In this document: piece after piece, positions 5,298-44,991 of the stretch
How the letters are laid out: the number at the start of each line of letters is the position of its first letter
How positions within the stretch are numbered: the first letter of the stretch is position 1
DNA from: a virus
Direction: 5' to 3' (one strand)
IMG/VR virus record: IMGVR_UViG_3300036828_000247
Coordinates: 3,961-67,960 of that record
DNA length: 64,000 nucleotides
The notes under the pieces: model-generated
Told to the model about the DNA's origin: nothing
What the model saw: only the letters and a program-made list of their open reading frames with translations
Databases searched by the model: none
Program-made: the position numbers and the translations under genes

Positions 5298-6062
5298 TCA
5301 CCTTCCGTAGAATGCTGGAGCCGGAACCATTACCGGAGCAGCCCTGCGACGACCGCTCATCTGCTGGGGAAGAATGCCGCCAGGAACTGGTGGCTGGATA
5401 ACAACGATCAGCCCGATGCCAACCTGTATAGTCAGTGTGGTCGAGCCAGCGTTGCTGGCCGGGCTACCGGACGCGGGCGAACCATTCACATCCTGCGCCG
5501 CATGGGACCGCTGGGCTAGTGCCCCGTCGGTGTAGGCGTTGGTGAATCCCGAGCCCGGCGTCCAGGTCTCGGCAGCCGCCGTACTGGACGATATCTGGCA
5601 GGCGGTAAATGCATAGCAGCCAGCCTGCGGCACATTCCCACTGGTTGCCATCGTCAGCGTGGTGCCGGCGCTGGCGGTAACCGTGCCGGATGCCCCCTCG
5701 GGAGTTACGGGGTCGGCACCGGAGAATTCCTCCAGCCCTGCACCGAGCCGCGCGTTAGTTGCGGTGCCCGTGTTGGTCGCGGTCAGGACCGGGGCGGCAT
5801 CAGCGCCAGCAGCAATCTTACGAAACAGGATCGCCCGGGCCTGCACCGCATTCGTGACTGCCCCCGCATCCACGGCCGTCACCCATCCCGAGGGTGGGGC
5901 AATAGCGCCGGCAGTAGTGCCGCCCCACGCGACCGCCCAGCAGTACAGCACATTCCCGGCAGTACGGTTCTGCCCGGTGCCCCACGCCGTCGTGATAGAT
6001 GGCGTGTTGCTCCCCACCTGATTCACAGGTGCGGCAGGCGTACCAACGCGGGCGACGGCCAT
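5298..6062 (-). CDS. Putative virion structural/fibre protein
   Basis: TAGNVL...APPSGW...FRKIA pattern; Ala/Thr/Gly-rich. Confidence 0.6.
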   Translation of the reverse strand: MAVARVGTPAAPVNQVGSNTPSITTAWGTGQNRTAGNVLYCWAVAWGGTTAGAIAPPSGWVTAVDAGAVTNAVQARAILFRKIAAGADAAPVLTATNTGTATNARLGAGLEEFSGADPVTPEGASGTVTASAGTTLTMATSGNVPQAGCYAFTACQISSSTAAAETWTPGSGFTNAYTDGALAQRSHAAQDVNGSPASGSPASNAGSTTLTIQVGIGLIVVIQPPVPGGILPQQMSGRRRAAPVMVPAPAFYGR

Positions 6063-6065
6063 GGC

Positions 6066-6554
6066 TCAGCTCGTGGTAAAGAGAGCTAGGCCGTTGGTGG
6101 GGTCAACCGTGTAGGTGTACGGGCCAGCTGTGCTGGAGACCGTCACCCCGAAGTCAATCACCGCGATGACGGGGGTGGCGGAGTCCACGCCACCACCGAT
6201 CGTGAAGTCATAGATGCACATCGAGGCAGCCGAGATGGTGACGGCAGCGCCCCAGCTGATGGGGGCTGGGGCGGTGCACGTCCACTTGTCGGTGCCGGGA
6301 GCGGTGCCGGTAGTCAGCGTCAGCGTGGTTAGCGGAATCCGGCCCGAGTTTGTCGCGGCGAGATAGTCCGCGTTAGCGCATTCCGTGTACGCAGTCTTCA
6401 GGTCAGAGACGAACTGGTAGACCTGCTGCGTTGCAGTCCACGCCGATGCGCTACCGGTGAACAGAGCGCAGCGGAACGCATCAGTTGTGAGGTTGATGGT
6501 CTTCTTGTTGATCGCGTCTACAGCCTTTGGATAGACGTGACTGGTTACCGCCAT
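6066..6554 (-). CDS. Putative virion structural protein
   Basis: INLTTDAFRCALFT...VIAVIDFG pattern typical of phage structural accessories; RBS upstream. Confidence 0.6.
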   Translation of the reverse strand: MAVTSHVYPKAVDAINKKTINLTTDAFRCALFTGSASAWTATQQVYQFVSDLKTAYTECANADYLAATNSGRIPLTTLTLTTGTAPGTDKWTCTAPAPISWGAAVTISAASMCIYDFTIGGGVDSATPVIAVIDFGVTVSSTAGPYTYTVDPTNGLALFTTS

Positions 6555-6658
6555 GCCCTTGCTCCTGTACCCTTGCTTTCTTGGCCGCTCGCACCAGGCG
6601 AGAGGGAGTGGTATTCAGTTATGGGATGAGGAATCCGCCATCGGCCGGAACCTCACTG

Positions 6659-7234
6659 CTACTGCCTGCCGCCCCTCCCTTTAGTAAGCTGTTCGTCGCC
6701 GGGACTGGTCGCCCCCGAAGAGCTCTGCTGGCCGGGCTGGCTGGGTCCAGTCCCTCGGGTATGCCCACCCGTCGAACGAGCAGTAGAGGGTGAACCCTGG
6801 CTCGACTGCTGGTGCCCGCCTGAGTGGCTCCCCGCAGAGCTGGCAGGCGGTCGGGTCGACTGTCCCGTTTCCTGGGGTGTTGATCCACTCTTGTCTTGCT
6901 TGCTCTCTGATGCTGAGGAGCTGGTACCAGCTGATGACGATCCCTCCTCGTCGTCGTCGGCGTGCTCCAGGTCGATCAGGTCAGCCTTGGTCAGGCCTTC
7001 CGCGTCCTCCTGGGATAGGCCGAGGACCCTGACCGCGTAGTCAACGTGCTCGTCCTTCGGGGCTGACTTCGCCGGAGGGGTCTCCTCCACCACATCCGGG
7101 TCTGCGGCGTTGCTTGCGCCTTCGCCTACTGAGATCCTTGCCATGCTCGTCTCCCTCCGTGGAAGGCCGCAGTGCGGGCAGGCCATCAGATCACTGGCGA
7201 TTGCCTGGCAGCCGCAGCTGCGGCAATTCCACAT
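6659..7234 (-). CDS. Zn-ribbon plus small helical (Rho-N/HeH-like) protein; its Ser-rich tail overlaps another gene
   Basis: CRSCGC...CPHC; SAPKDEHVDYAVRVLGLSQEDAEGLTKADLI. Confidence 0.6.
   Translation of the reverse strand: MWNCRSCGCQAIASDLMACPHCGLPRRETSMARISVGEGASNAADPDVVEETPPAKSAPKDEHVDYAVRVLGLSQEDAEGLTKADLIDLEHADDDEEGSSSAGTSSSASESKQDKSGSTPQETGQSTRPPASSAGSHSGGHQQSSQGSPSTARSTGGHTRGTGPSQPGQQSSSGATSPGDEQLTKGRGGRQ
6681..6935 (-). CDS. Overlapping 84-aa Zn-ribbon protein with a probable ATC start (ISWYQLLSIREQARQEW...CQLCGEPL...YCSFDGWAYPRDW)
   Basis: Hand-translated; GAGGAGGG RBS at 6949-6942, ATC at 6935, TAA at 6683-6681; protein-like sequence, whereas the annotated frame is low-complexity here. 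Confidence 0.65.
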   Translation of the reverse strand: MSWYQLLSIREQARQEWINTPGNGTVDPTACQLCGEPLRRAPAVEPGFTLYCSFDGWAYPRDWTQPARPAELFGGDQSRRRTAY

Positions 7235-7243
7235 AGTTTGCTC

Positions 7244-7372
7244 CTAGCCCTTATCGGGCGGTGCCTTGGACTTGGGTGGGTGGTAGATATCCTGCCGCCC
7301 CTGCTGGGCCAGCAACGGCAGCTCCTTGGCCTGGTCGGCATTGCTGATCGTCTCACGGCTGTCCCGTGGCAT
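7244..7372 (-). CDS. Small hypothetical protein (42 aa)
   Basis: AGGAGG RBS then ATG; fills the operon gap. Confidence 0.4.
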   Translation of the reverse strand: MPRDSRETISNADQAKELPLLAQQGRQDIYHPPKSKAPPDKG

Positions 7373-7381
7373 GATTCCCTC

Positions 7382-7834
7382 CTAGCTGACAAACGCTCCG
7401 GGATCTAGTGGCGTGAACTGCAGATACCACTTCATCTGGCCGGTATCGTTCGCCGTAGTCGTCCAGGTTATCACCCCGGCCGGGACAATGGCCACGAACG
7501 AGCGGTCGAAGTTGATCACGTTGGTCTGGATCGGCCCGCTCGCAATTCCGGCAGCGAACGCCGGAACGAACAGGCCGCCGACGGCCGCACTGGTGACCAC
7601 GGCCGACGTCGCGATGGAGGCCGGGGCGCTGACCCCACCCGTAGGCGTGTTGCCCAGGGACAGGCTGGTGACCGTAGCGCCAAGCGCCGTAGTCACCAGC
7701 CCGGCCATGAACTGGACCAGCACCGATCCGCCCGTCACCGTGAACAACGTGGCAGTAGCCGTCTGGGGCAGCGCCTGTGCTGCCTTAACGACCATGGACC
7801 CCGAGAGGCCTGAGTTCTTCACGGTGACTGACAT
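7382..7834 (-). CDS. Putative capsid decoration protein (paralog of 7834-8316)
   Basis: ALPQTATATLFTVTGG...GLVTTALGAT. Confidence 0.55.
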   Translation of the reverse strand: MSVTVKNSGLSGSMVVKAAQALPQTATATLFTVTGGSVLVQFMAGLVTTALGATVTSLSLGNTPTGGVSAPASIATSAVVTSAAVGGLFVPAFAAGIASGPIQTNVINFDRSFVAIVPAGVITWTTTANDTGQMKWYLQFTPLDPGAFVS

Positions 7835-8316
7835 TAGACTGCCACCACCGATCCGGCAGCCTTGGGCACCAGCGGCGTGTAGCCGAGGACCCAGGTGATG
7901 TTGCCCGTCACCGTAGTCAGGGTCGTGATCGTAATGCTGGCTGCATTGACCGTGAACCTGTTCATGGCGGTGGCCGCTCCCGAGGCCACGACCGGGGCCG
8001 GTAGTGCGCCGCCCGGGGTCAGCGGCATCACGAGCACCGCGCCTACGGCCGTCGCGTTGAGCGGGGCAGCCGGGGCCGCAGCTATCGCGGCCGGCAGCCC
8101 AGTCACGCCGATCGTAGGCGAGACGTTGGATGCCTGCAGGGCCGTGCTAACGATCCCGAACAGCGCAGTCACCTGGATGACACCGGTCACGTTGAAGATG
8201 GCCCCGGTAGCGCTAGCCGGCAGAGCCTTCCCGACGTTGACGCAGTACCGGCCGGTCTCTGCCCGGCCCTTCTGGGAGATGTCCTTGAAAATGAATCCCT
8301 TGGTAAGGGAGCTCAT
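7834..8316 (-). CDS. Putative capsid decoration protein
   Basis: ALPASATGAIFNVTG...GIVSTALQAS. Confidence 0.55.
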   Translation of the reverse strand: MSSLTKGFIFKDISQKGRAETGRYCVNVGKALPASATGAIFNVTGVIQVTALFGIVSTALQASNVSPTIGVTGLPAAIAAAPAAPLNATAVGAVLVMPLTPGGALPAPVVASGAATAMNRFTVNAASITITTLTTVTGNITWVLGYTPLVPKAAGSVVAV

Positions 8317-8317
8317 G

Positions 8318-8764
8318 TCAGGCCCCCAGGAGTTCCAGGTTGGCCGGGGCCCGCTGAACGGTGAGGTCGGCCGTGATCACCGAGCAGAGCCCGGAACCAC
8401 CCGCCGTCACCTTGAGGTAGGAGTTGGGGTCAGCCAGCTCCGATGTGAAGACGTGGAAGCAGCTCATCGCTGCCGTGAGGAGCCCAGCCGTTGTGCCGTG
8501 CGTGTACGTCGATACGGCTGGGCTGATGATCAGCTTGCTCCAGGGAGCCGTACCATCGGTCGCCGTACTCCAGTAGACCACCCGGATAGCCGCGAGCGTG
8601 CTGGCGAAGCCACCGGCAAACGAGCTGTCCTGGTTGAGCGTGGCTACCGCCGTGGCGCCGGTCACTACCACCATGGCCGTGCTCGCACCGCGCAGACGGA
8701 ACGGCTTGGCACTTGCGATCGGGATGATGTTGACGAGCCTCCCGAGGGCTTCCATTCCTGCCAT
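8318..8764 (-). CDS. Putative capsid decoration/cement protein
   Basis: Immediately downstream of the capsid gene; MEALGRLVNI...DLTVQRAPANL. Confidence 0.6.
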   Translation of the reverse strand: MAGMEALGRLVNIIPIASAKPFRLRGASTAMVVVTGATAVATLNQDSSFAGGFASTLAAIRVVYWSTATDGTAPWSKLIISPAVSTYTHGTTAGLLTAAMSCFHVFTSELADPNSYLKVTAGGSGLCSVITADLTVQRAPANLELLGA

Positions 8765-8843: not shown

Positions 8844-10253
8844 TTACCGCTGTGCGAGCTGCACGAACGGGGTCAGTGTCGGGCCGTTGTTGTGCGGGGT
8901 GATCGGGCTCTGGATCCAGGGCCGACCATCCAGCCGCTCGATCACGCGGAATGCGGTCTTGTCGTTCTGGAACTTGTACTGCTCCGAGGACGCCGACTGC
9001 ATCATCTGCCGGTCACCGATCAGGTAGTACTGCATGTCCACGAACGAGAGGTCGCCAGGCGAGCCCAGGATCGGGGTCTTCTCCGTGAAGTACACCGGAC
9101 GACCCAGGATCGTGATCGGGGGAGTAGCCGAACCCGGGTTGGTGTAGTTACCCATCCACACCGGCCCACCACCCGTGCCCACGGACAGCGCCATGGTCGC
9201 GAGCTCGGGGAAGGTGTCGATGGAAGCCAGCCACACCGCGTTACCCAGCGCGGTCGGGAGCATGCGTGCGAACATCTTCACGACGTTCTCCCAGACGATC
9301 GTGCCGTTGGCCTGCGAGCCTTCCTTCGCCACGTTGACAGAGGCCGGGCAGTTGATGAAGCCCAGGGGCTCGCCCACGCCGGTCCCCGTCATGAACGCGA
9401 TGTCCTCGTACCAGGCGATGGCGCGCGGGAAGATCGTGTCGAAGAAACTGGCGAACGCCGGAGCGTCCGACAGCAGCTCGTTCGGCACTTCCGCGTAGCC
9501 GGTCAGCTTCTTGGCATCGAGCACGACGCGGCCGAACGTGGCCTGCGACTCGACCAGCTGCGCGGCCTCTTCGGTCCAGTAGCAGACCACGCCACCGAAC
9601 ACCGAGCTAACGTTGCTGGTTGTGTCGATCATCGGGATGGGAACCCGCAGCGAGTCCATCGGGATGACCTGGGCGCGCGGCCGCACCACGGCCGTTTCCA
9701 GCGCCACCTGGAGGATCTGGGTACGCAGGACTTCCGGGATCAGGAAGCCACCGTCGGCCGGGACCTCGGAGCCGAAGCTGTTCTGGATCTTCAGCATGTT
9801 CTGGCGCTTGCGCCCCAGTACCTCGGAGTTCTTGAGCACCTCGTACTTCGGCCAGATGGCCTGGAAGAACTCCGCCGTGTCCCTGAACCGCAGGTCCTCG
9901 GGGGTGTCCTTCTCCAGCCGGGCCCCGAACGAGCCGTGGTTGTAGGCTGCACCCTTCCCGTGGCTGACTGCCTTGACGTCGGCCGGGGAGTTCACGCCGC
10001 CCATGTTGAGCCGGCCGTTCATGGTCTGGCCGCCATTGGTCTTCATGAAGTCGGCCAGGCCGATCTGGACCTGCTCCTTGATCTGAGCCTGGAGGCTCTC
10101 GTCCTTGTTCATCTGGGCCTTGGCATAGACCCCGATGAACTCCTTGAACTTGCCCGGCTCGGACATCATTGCCCGGACGTTGCCGGTGTCGGCCAGGAAG
10201 TCTTCCAGCTCCTCAGCCTTGGTCGGAATATTGATTGTCGGCATCTCCGTCAT
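8844..10253 (-). CDS. Major capsid protein, HK97 fold with N-terminal delta domain
   Basis: DGGFLIPE, WTEEA, GTGVGEPLG, ILGRPV, FRVIERLDGRP motifs. Confidence 0.95.
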   Translation of the reverse strand: MTEMPTINIPTKAEELEDFLADTGNVRAMMSEPGKFKEFIGVYAKAQMNKDESLQAQIKEQVQIGLADFMKTNGGQTMNGRLNMGGVNSPADVKAVSHGKGAAYNHGSFGARLEKDTPEDLRFRDTAEFFQAIWPKYEVLKNSEVLGRKRQNMLKIQNSFGSEVPADGGFLIPEVLRTQILQVALETAVVRPRAQVIPMDSLRVPIPMIDTTSNVSSVFGGVVCYWTEEAAQLVESQATFGRVVLDAKKLTGYAEVPNELLSDAPAFASFFDTIFPRAIAWYEDIAFMTGTGVGEPLGFINCPASVNVAKEGSQANGTIVWENVVKMFARMLPTALGNAVWLASIDTFPELATMALSVGTGGGPVWMGNYTNPGSATPPITILGRPVYFTEKTPILGSPGDLSFVDMQYYLIGDRQMMQSASSEQYKFQNDKTAFRVIERLDGRPWIQSPITPHNNGPTLTPFVQLAQR

Positions 10254-11341
10254 GCTCCCTTCAGGGCTGCGAGGAACTGAGTGGCGTCCTCTTCGGTGGC
10301 CTCTGGCCATTCATTGATGACCGGAGGAGTCGGGTCCGCGTTGCCGTCCCCGCTGGGGAGGCCAAGCGCGCTGGCGTGCGCCAGCAGGTGGGCGTGCGCC
10401 GCATCCTTGTTCTTGAGATCCTGGGTCTGGTTCCAGCGGCCGAGGGCCGCAACCACGCCACCCTTGTCCGGGCCTGCGCCCGGGGACGAGTGATGCGGAA
10501 GGGCCCAGTGAGCCTGGGTTGCCGGGTCGCCGGAGCTCTTCTCACCGGCGCACACCTTGCTGTAGTCGCCGGCCGAGTGACAGGCAGCCATCGCGGCCGC
10601 AGCATCCCAGTCGAAAACCTCAACGTGGCCATCGGTGAACATGACCTGGATAAGGTTGCTGACCGGCTCGTTACCCCCGGTCGTGACCGGCTCGGGACGG
10701 TTCTGGCCCCGGAACACGCTCATGTCCCAGGTGTCCGCTGCCGGCACGACCTGTCGGCCAGCACCCGAGTCTAGGAACCGGTCAGCCAGGCCCACGTCGA
10801 TGGCCTCCTGGCCGCTGAACCAGGTCTCAGCCTTCATGATCTGGCGCCAGTAGTCAGGGGTACGGCCGGTGTGGTCGCTGTAGATGGAGGCGATGTTGTT
10901 GCTGGCGCGGTCCAGCCGCTCAGCCTGGTCCCGGAGGTCCTGGGCATTCCCGATGGCCATCGTGAAGCCATCGTGGACCATCATGGTTGCCTGCCGGGCG
11001 ATGAGAACCGGGTTGCCCGCCATAGCGATGACCGAGGCGATGGAGTACGCTGCCCCGTCAATCACGATGGAGACGTCCCGCCGCGAGCTCAGCGTGTTGT
11101 AGATGGCTATGCCGTCATCAACCTCGCCACCCGGGCTGTTGAGGTGAACCTCGATCGGCCCGGTGACGTCAGCCAGATCCCGGATCAGGTCCATGGCCGA
11201 TACGCCAAAGAATCCGATCTCGTCATAGATGTGAAGCTGAGTCGGCCCGCTGATCTGATTCCGGATCCTGTACCAGTCATTCCCGCCCTGGTGCAGGCCG
11301 TACATCTTCCTGGCCGTACGCCAGGGTGTGTTACGACTCAC
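10250..11341 (-). CDS. Capsid maturation protease, ClpP family
   Basis: HLNSPGGEV, AYSIASVIAMAG, MMVHD, ETWFSGQEAIDVGLAD. Confidence 0.93.
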   Translation of the reverse strand: MSRNTPWRTARKMYGLHQGGNDWYRIRNQISGPTQLHIYDEIGFFGVSAMDLIRDLADVTGPIEVHLNSPGGEVDDGIAIYNTLSSRRDVSIVIDGAAYSIASVIAMAGNPVLIARQATMMVHDGFTMAIGNAQDLRDQAERLDRASNNIASIYSDHTGRTPDYWRQIMKAETWFSGQEAIDVGLADRFLDSGAGRQVVPAADTWDMSVFRGQNRPEPVTTGGNEPVSNLIQVMFTDGHVEVFDWDAAAAMAACHSAGDYSKVCAGEKSSGDPATQAHWALPHHSSPGAGPDKGGVVAALGRWNQTQDLKNKDAAHAHLLAHASALGLPSGDGNADPTPPVINEWPEATEEDATQFLAALKGA

Positions 11342-11644: not shown

Positions 11645-13114
11645 TCACGACGTCAGCTCCAGGTGGCCATTGAGCCCGGCCCGTAGGACATTGGCCGCAC
11701 GCTCTGCCTCGATCTCGTTCACGGCATCCTGGAACGCTTCCCGGATATCCGCGGCAAACGTCAGGCCTGGAACCATGTCGGCCGGGGTGACAGATTTGCC
11801 AGGTGTAGGCGCTGGCGCCGGTTCGGTCTTGCCGCCAGCAGGTAGCGCTGGCTGTTCTGTGGCTCCCGGGACGGCAGCGGCACCAGCGGGGCTCGGGGTG
11901 GGCGGAGGCTTCCACGTCATGTCCGGAAGGCCCACTACCGTCAGCACCTCTGATGAGTCGTACCCAGCCTTGACAAGGGCAGCAGCCGCTGTAGACTTGA
12001 CGGTCAGCTCCTGTGCGGCCTCTGTAATGCTGTGTGTCTGTGGATCCTGGAAATCAAACTCAACGCCAGTCCCGGTGCTGCCGAACATCGGGAGGTAGAA
12101 CCCATTCATGGCGGTACGCTGCCGAGTCAGGCGTGGGATTTCCTGCCAGGCAATGTGGACATCCTCAGCCGTCTGGGCGTTGGCGCGGTTGACATCCTCG
12201 CTGTTACCCAACATTGCCTGGTGGACCCGGTATGCCTCACGGATGATGTCACGGCTGATCTTCCGGAGCTCCGGGAACTGCATGTCACGCATGGTGTAGG
12301 TATTGGCGATCCACTGGGCACCCTGCTCCAGGATGCCAACGCGGTGACCCCGAGCGACGCCCTGATGCTGCTCGCGCCAGCGGGAGGTGAACTCGTCAAA
12401 CTCGTCATCGCTCAGCCGCTTGCTGAACTGGACGATCCCGCCCGGGGTGGCTGAGTTGAGGAAGAAGTTGCGTGACCACTCGGCCGTGTACTTTGCCGCG
12501 TCGATATCCGCCATGATCGACTGGACCGGGCTGAGGCCCCGGTAAAGGTCACTGGGGTTGGGATACTTGATCTGGATGACCTCGTTAACATCCAGGGGCA
12601 CGGTCTCGCCGTTGGGGCCGGTGTAAACCCAGCCCTTCAGGAACTTGTCGCGGTCTGGTACCGGCTCCATCCTGTCAGGCCGCACCGGCCACATCTCGAT
12701 GGGAATCCCGAGGCCGGAGGCTCCGCGGTTCAGAACCCAGTACCATTCCCCGACCAGCTCCATGTGCTGCCAGCCGATCTCCATGAACATGTCGCCAGTC
12801 ATGAAGTCATTGGGCCGGTTCCAGAGCTTCAGCGCCTGATGCTGCAACACCTCGACCCGCTGGTCGCTACCAAGGTCCACGCTGGAATAGCGCACCCGAT
12901 TATCCTGGTTAATCCGGTACATATTCCACTGAGAGCGTGAGACCCCGGTACTCAGCAGCTGAACGATGGCGAACAGGGTGCCCTGGCCGCTCATGGCCGC
13001 CAGCTGGGTAGTCATGCCGGCCCCGGTCATACTGGTGCCACCGTAGCTGACCCGGTTCGGCGCCATGGGCAGCGGGCGGAGCGCCATGGCCTTGCTTATC
13101 AGAGACTTAGGCAT
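11645..13114 (-). CDS. Portal protein, HK97 family
   Basis: NRPNDFMTG, ELVGEWYW, YRGLSPV, FFLNSATPGG, DMQFPELR, NRANA. Confidence 0.93.
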   Translation of the reverse strand: MPKSLISKAMALRPLPMAPNRVSYGGTSMTGAGMTTQLAAMSGQGTLFAIVQLLSTGVSRSQWNMYRINQDNRVRYSSVDLGSDQRVEVLQHQALKLWNRPNDFMTGDMFMEIGWQHMELVGEWYWVLNRGASGLGIPIEMWPVRPDRMEPVPDRDKFLKGWVYTGPNGETVPLDVNEVIQIKYPNPSDLYRGLSPVQSIMADIDAAKYTAEWSRNFFLNSATPGGIVQFSKRLSDDEFDEFTSRWREQHQGVARGHRVGILEQGAQWIANTYTMRDMQFPELRKISRDIIREAYRVHQAMLGNSEDVNRANAQTAEDVHIAWQEIPRLTRQRTAMNGFYLPMFGSTGTGVEFDFQDPQTHSITEAAQELTVKSTAAAALVKAGYDSSEVLTVVGLPDMTWKPPPTPSPAGAAAVPGATEQPALPAGGKTEPAPAPTPGKSVTPADMVPGLTFAADIREAFQDAVNEIEAERAANVLRAGLNGHLELTS

Positions 13115-13162
13115 GGGGCACCCCATTCCCGCCCTTGTTGTGGATCCAGAGCAGCCAGATGA

Positions 13163-14055: not shown

Positions 14056-15405
14056 TCATACCTGGAAGCTCCTGTAGATTACGCGGACGCCGAAGTCACG
14101 GTCGGCCACGACATAGCGCATCGCGTCACATCCGTGGTCATCATTCTTGACCGGGGCGTCCTTCCCGTTGGTAGCCCAGACATAGCCCGGAATTTCCTCG
14201 ATGGTGCAGCAAGGTCGTCCCGAGTCCACCAGCTCCGGATCCTTCCGCACGATGGCGTCCCGCAGGAAGTAGATGCGCCGCCGGCCATCGCCTGGGTCAC
14301 GGAATCGGATCTGGCACGCCTCGATGCCCTCCAGAACGCTCTTGTGTGCCGGCTGTGTAGACAGCCCAAGGTCCCGCTCTAGTACGGCCCGGCCCTCGGC
14401 GTCATGGTCGCACACGACAGCCGAGGGCTTTGGCTCCCGCCACTTCCCGCCCGGGGCCACGATGCCCAGGATCTCCTTCGCATGGACGTCCACCGTCCGG
14501 TGCGTGTGGTAGATCTCCCGGTACAGGTACAGCCGGCCATCGCCGTCCTCCGCCCAGCACTGGAGCACAAACGGGTTGACGTATCCGAAGTCAACGGCCC
14601 AGAACCTGCGCCACGACAGCGGCACCCCGCACCAGTCGGTCGGCTCGTTGCTGACCGGGATTGCGTCAATGACGTGGATCTCCTGCTCAAAGTCCTCGTA
14701 GATCACACCCTCAACAGCAGCCCACCGGCCCATGCGGAGCCGGAGATACCGCACGCCGCTCAGCCGGTCCAGCTTGCCCAGGTAGTCAGCCCCGCGCTCG
14801 GTCAGCTTCCCGTCCGGGGCGAACAGCACCGGGTTGTCCTCGTGCCACACTTCCAGCATCGTCGTGCGGCCGGTGTCGCACCTCTTCTTCAGCCAGTGCG
14901 TCGGCTGGGCAGGGTTGCAGTCACCCATGAGCTGCTGGAAGCTGACCTGCCAGTTCCTCAGCCGGGTCGTGAGCGCTTCCCAGTCACCCTCAGTCAGCTC
15001 GGTAGCTTCCTGGACATAGATCACGTCATACTCAGAGGACATGATCTTGGTAACCTTGTCCAGCCCACCAATAGCAATCACGGAGCCGTTGCTGTAGCGA
15101 TAAGCCGACGGCTCCTGCGTGCTCCCGCCGTAGTATGTTATGTCCCCAGTCAGCAGAGCCTCGTTAGCCACGAACCGTCTCCACGTCACGAGCGCGGTGG
15201 AGGACAGGGTGGCGGCCGTCTTGCGGCAGATCAGCCCGCGCATCCCCGGGTTGAGCAGCGCCATCACATGGAGCTTCTCCATGCAGGCTCGTGACTTGCC
15301 GGTTCCGGCCGGACCGCTCAGCAGGACCTCGGCGTCACGGCAGTCAAACAGCTCGTCACACTGGCCCCACGGCTCATAGACATGCTCAGCTGGCGCGGGC
15401 ACCAC
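14056..15405 (-). CDS. terL: Terminase large subunit (PBSX-like)
   Basis: Walker A GPAGTGKS, YVQEATE, DCNP, AVDFGYVNP, DDHGCDAMRY. Confidence 0.95.
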   Translation of the reverse strand: MVPAPAEHVYEPWGQCDELFDCRDAEVLLSGPAGTGKSRACMEKLHVMALLNPGMRGLICRKTAATLSSTALVTWRRFVANEALLTGDITYYGGSTQEPSAYRYSNGSVIAIGGLDKVTKIMSSEYDVIYVQEATELTEGDWEALTTRLRNWQVSFQQLMGDCNPAQPTHWLKKRCDTGRTTMLEVWHEDNPVLFAPDGKLTERGADYLGKLDRLSGVRYLRLRMGRWAAVEGVIYEDFEQEIHVIDAIPVSNEPTDWCGVPLSWRRFWAVDFGYVNPFVLQCWAEDGDGRLYLYREIYHTHRTVDVHAKEILGIVAPGGKWREPKPSAVVCDHDAEGRAVLERDLGLSTQPAHKSVLEGIEACQIRFRDPGDGRRRIYFLRDAIVRKDPELVDSGRPCCTIEEIPGYVWATNGKDAPVKNDDHGCDAMRYVVADRDFGVRVIYRSFQV

Positions 15406-44899: not shown

Positions 44900-44973
44900 G
44901 GCGGAGTAGAGCAGCTCGGTAGCTCGGTTGGCTCATAACCAACAGGTCACTGGTTCAAATCCAGTCTCCGCCC
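44900..44973 (+). tRNA. tRNA-Met (CAT), CCA not encoded
   Basis: Cloverleaf GGCGGAG/CTCCGCC; D arm GAGC/GCTC; anticodon GTTGG-CTCATAA-CCAAC; T arm ACTGG-TTCAAAT-CCAGT. Confidence 0.92.
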
Positions 44974-44991
44974 CGAAGCCGCGTGCGCACA

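Follow-up and report, generated by a model that had tools for sequence, protein, structure and literature searches.

A second copy of the capsid N-arm peptide as a probable frameshift-encoded C-terminal tail in the head module of a soil phage

Why would a phage encode the same short capsid peptide twice, in different codons, the second time directly in front of a stop codon and in a frame that offers it no start codon of its own? The genome that raises this question is a single contig of 67,960 bases, with about 64% G+C, from a soil metagenome assembly. What we call the window is the whole stretch of DNA that was analysed, i.e., this genome minus 3,960 bases (64,000 bases); its features discussed below lie on the minus strand unless stated otherwise. 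The head module is found within the first 16 kb and comprises the large terminase (14056-15405), the portal (11645-13126), a ClpP-type head maturation protease (10250-11341) located directly 5' of the capsid gene, and the major capsid gene itself (8844-10310), which encodes an HK97-family protein of 488 aa whose N-terminal 180 residues or so are scaffold-like. This protein belongs to PF05065, which it matches over residues 187-470 with an E-value of 4e-46 and 158 bits, for a cut-off of 24.2. Its original SEVPADGGFLIP segment occupies residues 181-192 (9735-9770), at the start of the conserved HK97-family domain, i.e., in the N-arm. The 12-mer hardly varies among relatives and is identical in most of them; G187, G188, F189, L190, and P192 are invariant in 28 aligned capsids. 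As listed, the capsid ORF and the protease gene share 61 bases (10250-10310); since the alignment with the capsids of relatives begins only around residue 21, the Met at residue 20 (10253) is probably the true start.

The second copy had been pointed out in an earlier note on this DNA, and it is real. Indeed, positions 6657-6622 contain 12 codons for SEVPADGGFLIP, identical to capsid residues 181-192 and directly followed by a TAA (6621-6619), and the stop also abuts the motif in most relatives. The recoding is also as had been claimed: 9 base changes, spread over 7 codons, separate the two 36-mers, all of them synonymous and corresponding exactly to the codon pairs listed. A six-frame translation of all 67,960 bases contains GGFLIP at two sites only, the tail copy and the capsid, and the identity over 12 residues rules out chance. 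The reading frame of the copy is +1 relative to a Ser-rich ORF of 191 aa closed by a TAG (6661-6659), and -1 relative to a nested ORF closed by a TAA (6683-6681); its nearest ATG, GTG, or TTG is at 6888, so that the copy is without its own start codon. Its codon use is poor for this genome (GC3 of 0.60). The out-of-frame layout is not an assembly error. The sequence of 6300-7400 was reproduced, at a depth of 30.6, by an independent assembly of the probable source run, and two strains from other soil runs (X2 and X4, about 91-93% identical) span the site with no indel over 6611-6849 and 6611-7078, respectively. Streptomyces phage Dagobah, the named phage closest to this one (its capsid is 46% identical), carries no second copy in the 14.5 kb examined, and a blastn search of 6000-7400 against GenBank phages gave no match. 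An Rfam search of 6300-7400 found nothing, the promoter and terminator scan gave nothing useful, and the full-text literature search on the tail motif and on the motif of the nested ORF family brought up two unrelated papers only and no mention of either in print.

The earlier note had proposed looking for the same peptide at this locus in related phages. It is indeed found there, as the extreme C-terminus of a homologous Ser-rich protein. The related loci were collected through a capsid search (40 loci), a conserved 15-mer (27 loci in which the nested ORF is present), and a nested-ORF profile (80 of 334), with four distant metagenome contigs and four genome contigs in addition. Lineages were tallied by hand, contigs seen twice being merged, among about 80 distinct loci that contain the nested ORF (81 were counted, including a false one, and the strict automatic count took in 76). 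A capsid-like tail is present in 28 lineages. In 14 of them it lies in the Ser-rich frame (L005, L010, L014/17, L015, L016, L059, L114, L136, L142, L152, L169, L175/179, L176, and L177), while six lineages have it in the -1 frame (L012, L143, L107, L110, L122, and L102), six in the +1 frame (the window, L187, L117, L180, L167, and L166), and two near the end of an upstream zinc-ribbon ORF (L036 and L026). The strict automatic count retained 21 tails among the 76 distinct loci, i.e., 12 in frame, three at -1, four at +1, and two upstream. In L015, the motif is internal and a helical domain follows it. In L036 (L147, around 4866) and L026 (L140, around 4856), the motif near the C-terminus of the zinc-ribbon ORF is followed by a short Trp-Gly-Lys-type ending, which is also seen on the zinc-ribbon ORFs of other relatives. 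About two-thirds of the related loci are without a tail, some being cut off too early to tell, and the closest relative (L002) has none and is 43 bases shorter here; the tail is thus dispensable.

The tails share a consensus consisting of Gly, x-Ser-Glu-x-(Asp or Val)-Pro-x-x-Gly-Gly-Phe-(Leu or Val)-(Val, Ile, or Ala)-Pro, and a stop. The residue preceding Ser-Glu is variable (Pro, Tyr, Ala, Thr, or Ser), and the GGF-L/V-x-P core and the extreme C-terminal position are kept. We built a position matrix from the tails of 14 relatives, leaving the window out, and scored with it the 95,898 stop-free 14-mers of the genome. The window copy came first (17.06) and the capsid site second (14.75), with 6.24 for the third site, for a mean of -16.0 and a standard deviation of 4.35. 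Hence, it is the tail of the whole family that resembles the capsid arm, and the window copy is its most exact version. From this comparison of sequences, the 12-mer is very probably the C-terminal tail typical of this family, belonging to a disordered, Ser-rich protein of the head module. A link between Ile-type tails and out-of-frame coding was considered and dropped, L177 having GGFLIP in frame.

The Ser-rich ORF, which would carry the tail, spans 6659-7234. It encodes an N-terminal zinc ribbon (7145-7234), then a short helical segment and a Ser-rich low-complexity stretch, and its likely internal start is an ATG (7144-7142) preceded by GGAGG. A short segment of the protein matches the end of PHROG 2322 and 12035, and Pfam searches with the carrier and four homologues returned only sub-threshold zinc-ribbon and TPR matches. 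In many relatives, a single ORF spans the conserved N-terminus, the Ser-rich stretch, and a C-terminal helical domain that is weakly TPR-like. The N-terminus of a 42-aa ORF (7244-7372) resembles that of the Ser-rich protein; this small ORF is fused to the Ser-rich protein in L005, L010, L012, and L025, the modules of the locus being shuffled among relatives.

Inside the carrier gene, and in its -1 frame, lies the nested ORF (6681-6935), which encodes a zinc-ribbon protein of 84 aa that we call the WYQLL family; it begins with an ATC (6935-6933) and ends at the TAA 6683-6681. Its third-position G+C is the highest of the three frames. It is conserved in all the related loci that reach it, with 334 relatives in IMG/VR and prophage copies in Streptomyces and Kitasatospora. 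At the start position, an ATC is found in 46 of the 72 distinct loci, an ATG, GTG, or TTG in 18, and another codon in eight. In most of the ATC loci, the interval from the upstream stop to the nested ORF contains no ordinary start, and in many of them this stop is only 4-6 codons 5' of a conserved Trp. Since an NTG start followed by the conserved AGC would put a TGA in the Ser-rich frame, the ATC is explained, and the odd start of the nested ORF looks forced by dual coding. Moreover, in 42 of 45 ATC loci no stop interrupts the Ser-rich frame anywhere along the nested ORF, versus 25 of 45 for the third frame, and both overlapping genes look real on these sequence grounds. A model of the nested protein (pLDDT of 77) matched nothing in the PDB when searched with Foldseek at E <= 0.001; the PDB profile search returned generic zinc fingers and ribbons only, and Pfam weak zinc-ribbon matches only.

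How would ribosomes then reach a tail that lies in the +1 frame of its carrier? The comparisons point to the sequence ACT AAA GGG A (6685-6676), i.e., to one of the two junctions proposed earlier, a +1 shift at AAA GGG AGG. The Ser-rich frame reads here ACT (6685-6683), AAA (6682-6680), and GGG (6679-6677), and its unshifted stop, the TAG, comes six codons past GGG. As at a shift-prone site, both tRNAs could re-pair after a +1 movement, AAA GGG A becoming AAG GGA. AAAGGGA occurs once on the minus strand of the genome, AAA is a rare codon (19 versus 454 AAG in 56 long ORFs), and the next codon, AGG, is not rare (10.2 per thousand). To our knowledge, ACT-AAA-GGG-A stands outside the classic +1 sites. 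In the peptide frame, homology to the family begins immediately after AAA, in a linker of Gly, Ala, and Ser codons (6681-6658, from AAG 6681-6679 to AGC 6660-6658) that aligns with the Gly-rich linker preceding the motif in relatives; homology to L002 in the Ser-rich frame continues up to the junction Lys. The lineage L187 is distant, its nested-ORF protein being 56% identical to that of the window, and yet it presents the same 11-mer at its junction, ACTAAAGGGAG, and the same +1 layout. In L187, the +1 frame is closed by a TGA directly before the 11-mer, so that a shift there must fall within ACT-AAA-GGG. Its sequence was found in two samples, identical over 3,300 bases.

The same kind of junction recurs in the other out-of-frame lineages. 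Twelve of the 28 lineages have an out-of-frame tail with intact motif and stop, and in 10 of these 12 the junction is a Lys codon within an A-run. Three types of junctions can be distinguished, i.e., CCCAAAA in L012, L107, L110, and L143 (all at -1); CCAAAAG, read as (T)CC-AAA-AGx, in L117, L166, L167, and L180 (all at +1); and ACTAAAGGGA (ACT-AAA-GGG-AG) in the window and L187 (both at +1). In the strict count, an A-run lies at most 19 bases before the scored motif in seven of the seven out-of-frame tails, and a run of at least three A within 75 bases is seen in two of the 12 in-frame tails. The tails behind CCCAAAA lie at 11041-11097 in L012, 2960-3016 in L107, 1308-1373 in L110, and around 5255-5320 in L143. 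In these -1 lineages, the Ser-rich frame reads C-CCA-AAA, which is the classic pattern, directly 3' of the stop of the nested ORF, and the zero-frame stop comes right after the Lys codon (L143) or up to six codons later; more generally, the zero-frame stop of the relatives is close to the Lys codon, coming either immediately after it or no more than about 10 codons later. For the -1 lineages, where a -1 frameshift is a candidate, readthrough of the nested stop is the alternative, since it would give the same frame as a -1 slip. A search of IMG/VR with the pattern CCCAAAA...GGGTAY...GGNGGNTTY brought no new true case. The RNA fold after the site is not significant in the window (z of -0.8), nor are those of relatives (-1.7, +0.2, and -1.3). 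A GGGAGGGG run overlaps the proposed shift site of the window, at a spacing that differs from that of the prfB +1 site.

Substitutions in the tail offer another view of this frame. Between the window and L187, we counted eight synonymous and two non-synonymous codon changes in the tail frame, versus 0/8 and 0/7 in the other two frames. The window and L117 gave 7/2 in the tail frame versus 1/8 and 2/6, and L187 and L117 gave 4/2 versus 1/5 and 1/5. This comparison, made over 12 codons only, shows, by the measure of codon changes, purifying selection on the tail reading frame. The synonymous pattern could be partly inherited from in-frame ancestors.

We lean toward a reading in three parts, i.e., a family tail, made by a +1 slip, that docks on the capsid or procapsid, the first two parts weighing most. 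In the window, the tail is probably translated by the +1 slip, as the end of a minor isoform. Most ribosomes would terminate at the TAG 6661-6659. A minority would slip by +1 at ACT-AAA-GGG-A (6685-6676), where Lys-tRNA would exchange AAA for AAG and Gly-tRNA GGG for GGA. The shifted ribosomes would then read the short Gly/Ser linker and the exact N-arm peptide of the capsid, up to the TAA 6621-6619. The resulting tailed isoform would most likely be tethered to the capsid or procapsid at the site that normally holds the N-arm of a neighbouring subunit. Such a docking by N-arm mimicry is a prediction that we hold tentatively. It comes from the form of the tail only: a free C-terminal strand after a long disordered linker, copying the first residues of the mature HK97-type subunit. 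An AlphaFold2 model of the capsid made with 28 sequences had a mean pLDDT of 47 and was unusable for placing the motif structurally, and the predicted complex of two mature capsid chains with a 35-residue tail scored 0.00, which speaks neither for nor against binding.

The main functional rival accepts the translation of the tail and gives it another partner. The tail would be a recognition signal shared with the capsid and read by the ClpP-type protease, as a substrate or cleavage-site mimic, by the scaffold part, or by the portal. We consider it unlikely, although several observations are in its favour: the copied capsid segment starts at the likely maturation cleavage point, the gene of the protease adjoins that of the capsid, and the residues before the motif (Gly, then Ser-Glu) are also like those of the capsid junction. 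A cleavage-site mimic should nevertheless keep its upstream side. In the tails, it is precisely the residue before Ser-Glu that varies, the GGF core and the C-terminal position being fixed, and this speaks mildly against such a mimic.

Another explanation, also rather unlikely, denies translation altogether. The tail would have been in frame in an ancestor and become an untranslated relic when one A was inserted in AAG; the protein would now end at the TAG 6661-6659, and the 12-mer would simply not have decayed. A single inserted A (AAG to AAAG) is enough to explain the frame, and the rarity of AAA next to AAG, the absence of the tail from L002 and most related loci, and the poor codon use of the tail (all given above) go in the same direction. 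On the other hand, the distant L187 shares this out-of-frame layout, 11-mer included; the changes in the tail frame of the +1 lineages are mostly synonymous (eight against two), with 0/8 and 0/7 elsewhere; the motif and its stop, although out of frame, are unbroken in 12 of the 28 lineages, and in 10 of these they stand behind a Lys A-run, which is unlike the appearance of relics; and the two strains at 91-93% show the layout without indels.

The tail could also be reached from the nested zinc-ribbon ORF, by the other route proposed in the earlier note, a -1 slip near TTC GGG GGC. The relation of the frames permits it, and in the -1 lineages the tail does lie in the nested frame, past the nested stop. 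This route is nonetheless very improbable in the window. The sequence offers no heptamer on which both tRNAs could re-pair, the stretch of the peptide frame from that point to the linker contains two rare codons, TTA (0.5 per thousand) and CTA (5.8 per thousand), family homology begins only after AAA, the peptide frame of L187 is closed by the TGA until ACT-AAA-GGG, and the Ser-rich ORF is the carrier in the relatives with in-frame tails. The proposal of a capsid-mimic peptide reached by a frameshift thus stands, on comparative grounds, for its frame, its site, and the selection on it, and is not supported for this -1 route.

As for the other possibility raised in the earlier note, an unread scar of recombination with the capsid gene of a related phage, the capsid 12-mer is identical in most relatives and written in 48 distinct 36-mers, so that a foreign copy would differ only synonymously and the synonymous-only pattern alone is no proof of selection at the locus; it is still barely credible and we reject it, because none of the 48 is an exact donor (the nearest differs at 4 bases), a pattern search of IMG/VR found no other copy of the peptide with its TAA, the similarity ends exactly at the motif with flanks unlike the capsid and a stop where the family tails end, and the motif follows a family-type linker, with diverged tails at the same place in 27 other lineages, i.e., an old trait of the locus.

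Within the preferred reading, a translated and docking tail, a more precise role can be imagined, which we consider quite improbable at this stage. The tail would be a dose-limited, putative surrogate for the capsid N-arm, the slip keeping the isoform scarce enough to fill only the few N-arm sites that are left without a partner, for example, the five hexon sites that surround the portal and lack a penton beside them. The zinc-ribbon and disordered protein would be anchored there without poisoning the assembly of the shell, and lineages with more diverged tails could afford to have them in frame.

By its form alone, the tail may be likened to the cargo-loading peptides of encapsulins. These are short peptides located at the extreme C-terminus, behind a flexible linker, which direct a protein to an HK97-fold shell and bind a pocket on its inner face. 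The tail is likewise a short C-terminal peptide behind a disordered linker. The differences are that its motif copies the N-terminal arm of the shell protein itself, that the shell is a phage capsid, and that the shell gene has as its neighbours the terminase, the portal, and the maturation protease of a phage head module, and not a cargo enzyme as in encapsulin systems. The encapsulin cargo-loading consensus also differs from the tail motif. The capsid targeting sequences of the internal proteins of T4, which are N-terminal, bring passengers into the prohead and are removed by the prohead protease. They resemble the tail, in the role suggested for it, as short peptides on a passenger protein, and differ from it by their N-terminal position, by their removal by the protease, and because they copy no capsid arm.

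Attachment to a shell by a thin arm is described for the Dec protein and the PVP of phage P74-26, whose arms pair with the E-loop, N-arm, or P-domain of the capsid, adding strands to its sheets (PMC12407722). The predicted likeness is that of an accessory protein held on the shell by such an arm; the arms of Dec and PVP are N-terminal, stand on folded proteins, and involve neither a copy of a capsid arm nor recoding. For the recoding itself, the lambda gpG/gpGT pair offers a parallel: it is made by a -1 frameshift with a Lys codon in the slippery site and a close zero-frame stop, which gives a fixed small share of the long product (PMC5009743). A candidate slippery site with a Lys codon and a zero-frame stop close behind is what the tail loci have in common with it. 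The genes, their place, and their role (tail assembly chaperones in lambda) are others, and the window needs a +1 shift, not a -1 shift.

A precedent is given by the C-terminal additions of phage structural proteins, which are found in frame, at -1, or at +1 among relatives, whatever the direction (PMC5009743). Additions made by programmed frameshifts include those of T3/T7 gene 10, of Lactobacillus phage A2, and of Listeria phages A118, A500, and PSA, as well as Ig-like domains. As with these structural proteins, the tail would mark a minor long isoform that shares its N-terminal part with the major product. The differences are that the addition consists here of 12-20 residues forming a linear copy of the capsid N-arm, and not of a folded Ig-like domain, that the carrier is disordered, and not a coat or tail-tube protein, and that the proposed slip sites are Lys A-runs. 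We would thus place the tail in a known kind, that of C-terminal additions made by recoding on phage head proteins, with an unusual cargo, i.e., a copy of the capsid's own arm. The genetic setting, a dual-coding locus with an ATC-started nested gene, is unusual too.

If this reading is true, a short linear motif would let phage proteins borrow the arm of the capsid to attach to the shell, at a dose set by the slip of the ribosome, the direction of the slip (-1, +1, or none) flipping between relatives at a Lys A-run. Such a motif could be a simple tag for placing passengers on or into HK97-type shells, and the lineages described here would form a natural series in which +1 and -1 slipping can be compared on one type of site in high-GC hosts. 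The locus would also be a warning for annotation. Standard gene callers miss the tail, the ATC-started nested gene, and the long isoform.

Several minor observations concern the surroundings of the locus. Between the capsid gene and the tail locus lie three tandem genes of about 150 aa each (7382-7834, 7834-8316, and 8318-8764), for which no family match was found; the first two match each other (tblastn, relatives) and are thus paralogues, and one to four copies are found per relative. A 321-aa ORF (233-1198) matches the C-terminal end of a tail-spike PHROG (phrog_11182, E of 4.5e-11), and none of the minus-strand ORFs listed for the first 16 kb was seen to be of tape-measure length. A tRNA-Met (anticodon CAT, 44900-44974, plus strand) is the sole tRNA found in the window. 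Finally, the tail is followed by a conserved intergenic stretch (6555-6618), which starts with the TAACTGAATACC word and reaches the next gene, whose start is at 6554. It has no Rfam match and also contains a AAGAAAGCAAGGG-type run before the start of this gene. The TAACTGAATACC word is found after the tail locus in many relatives, and the stretch is kept even where the neighbouring genes are about 60% identical among relatives.
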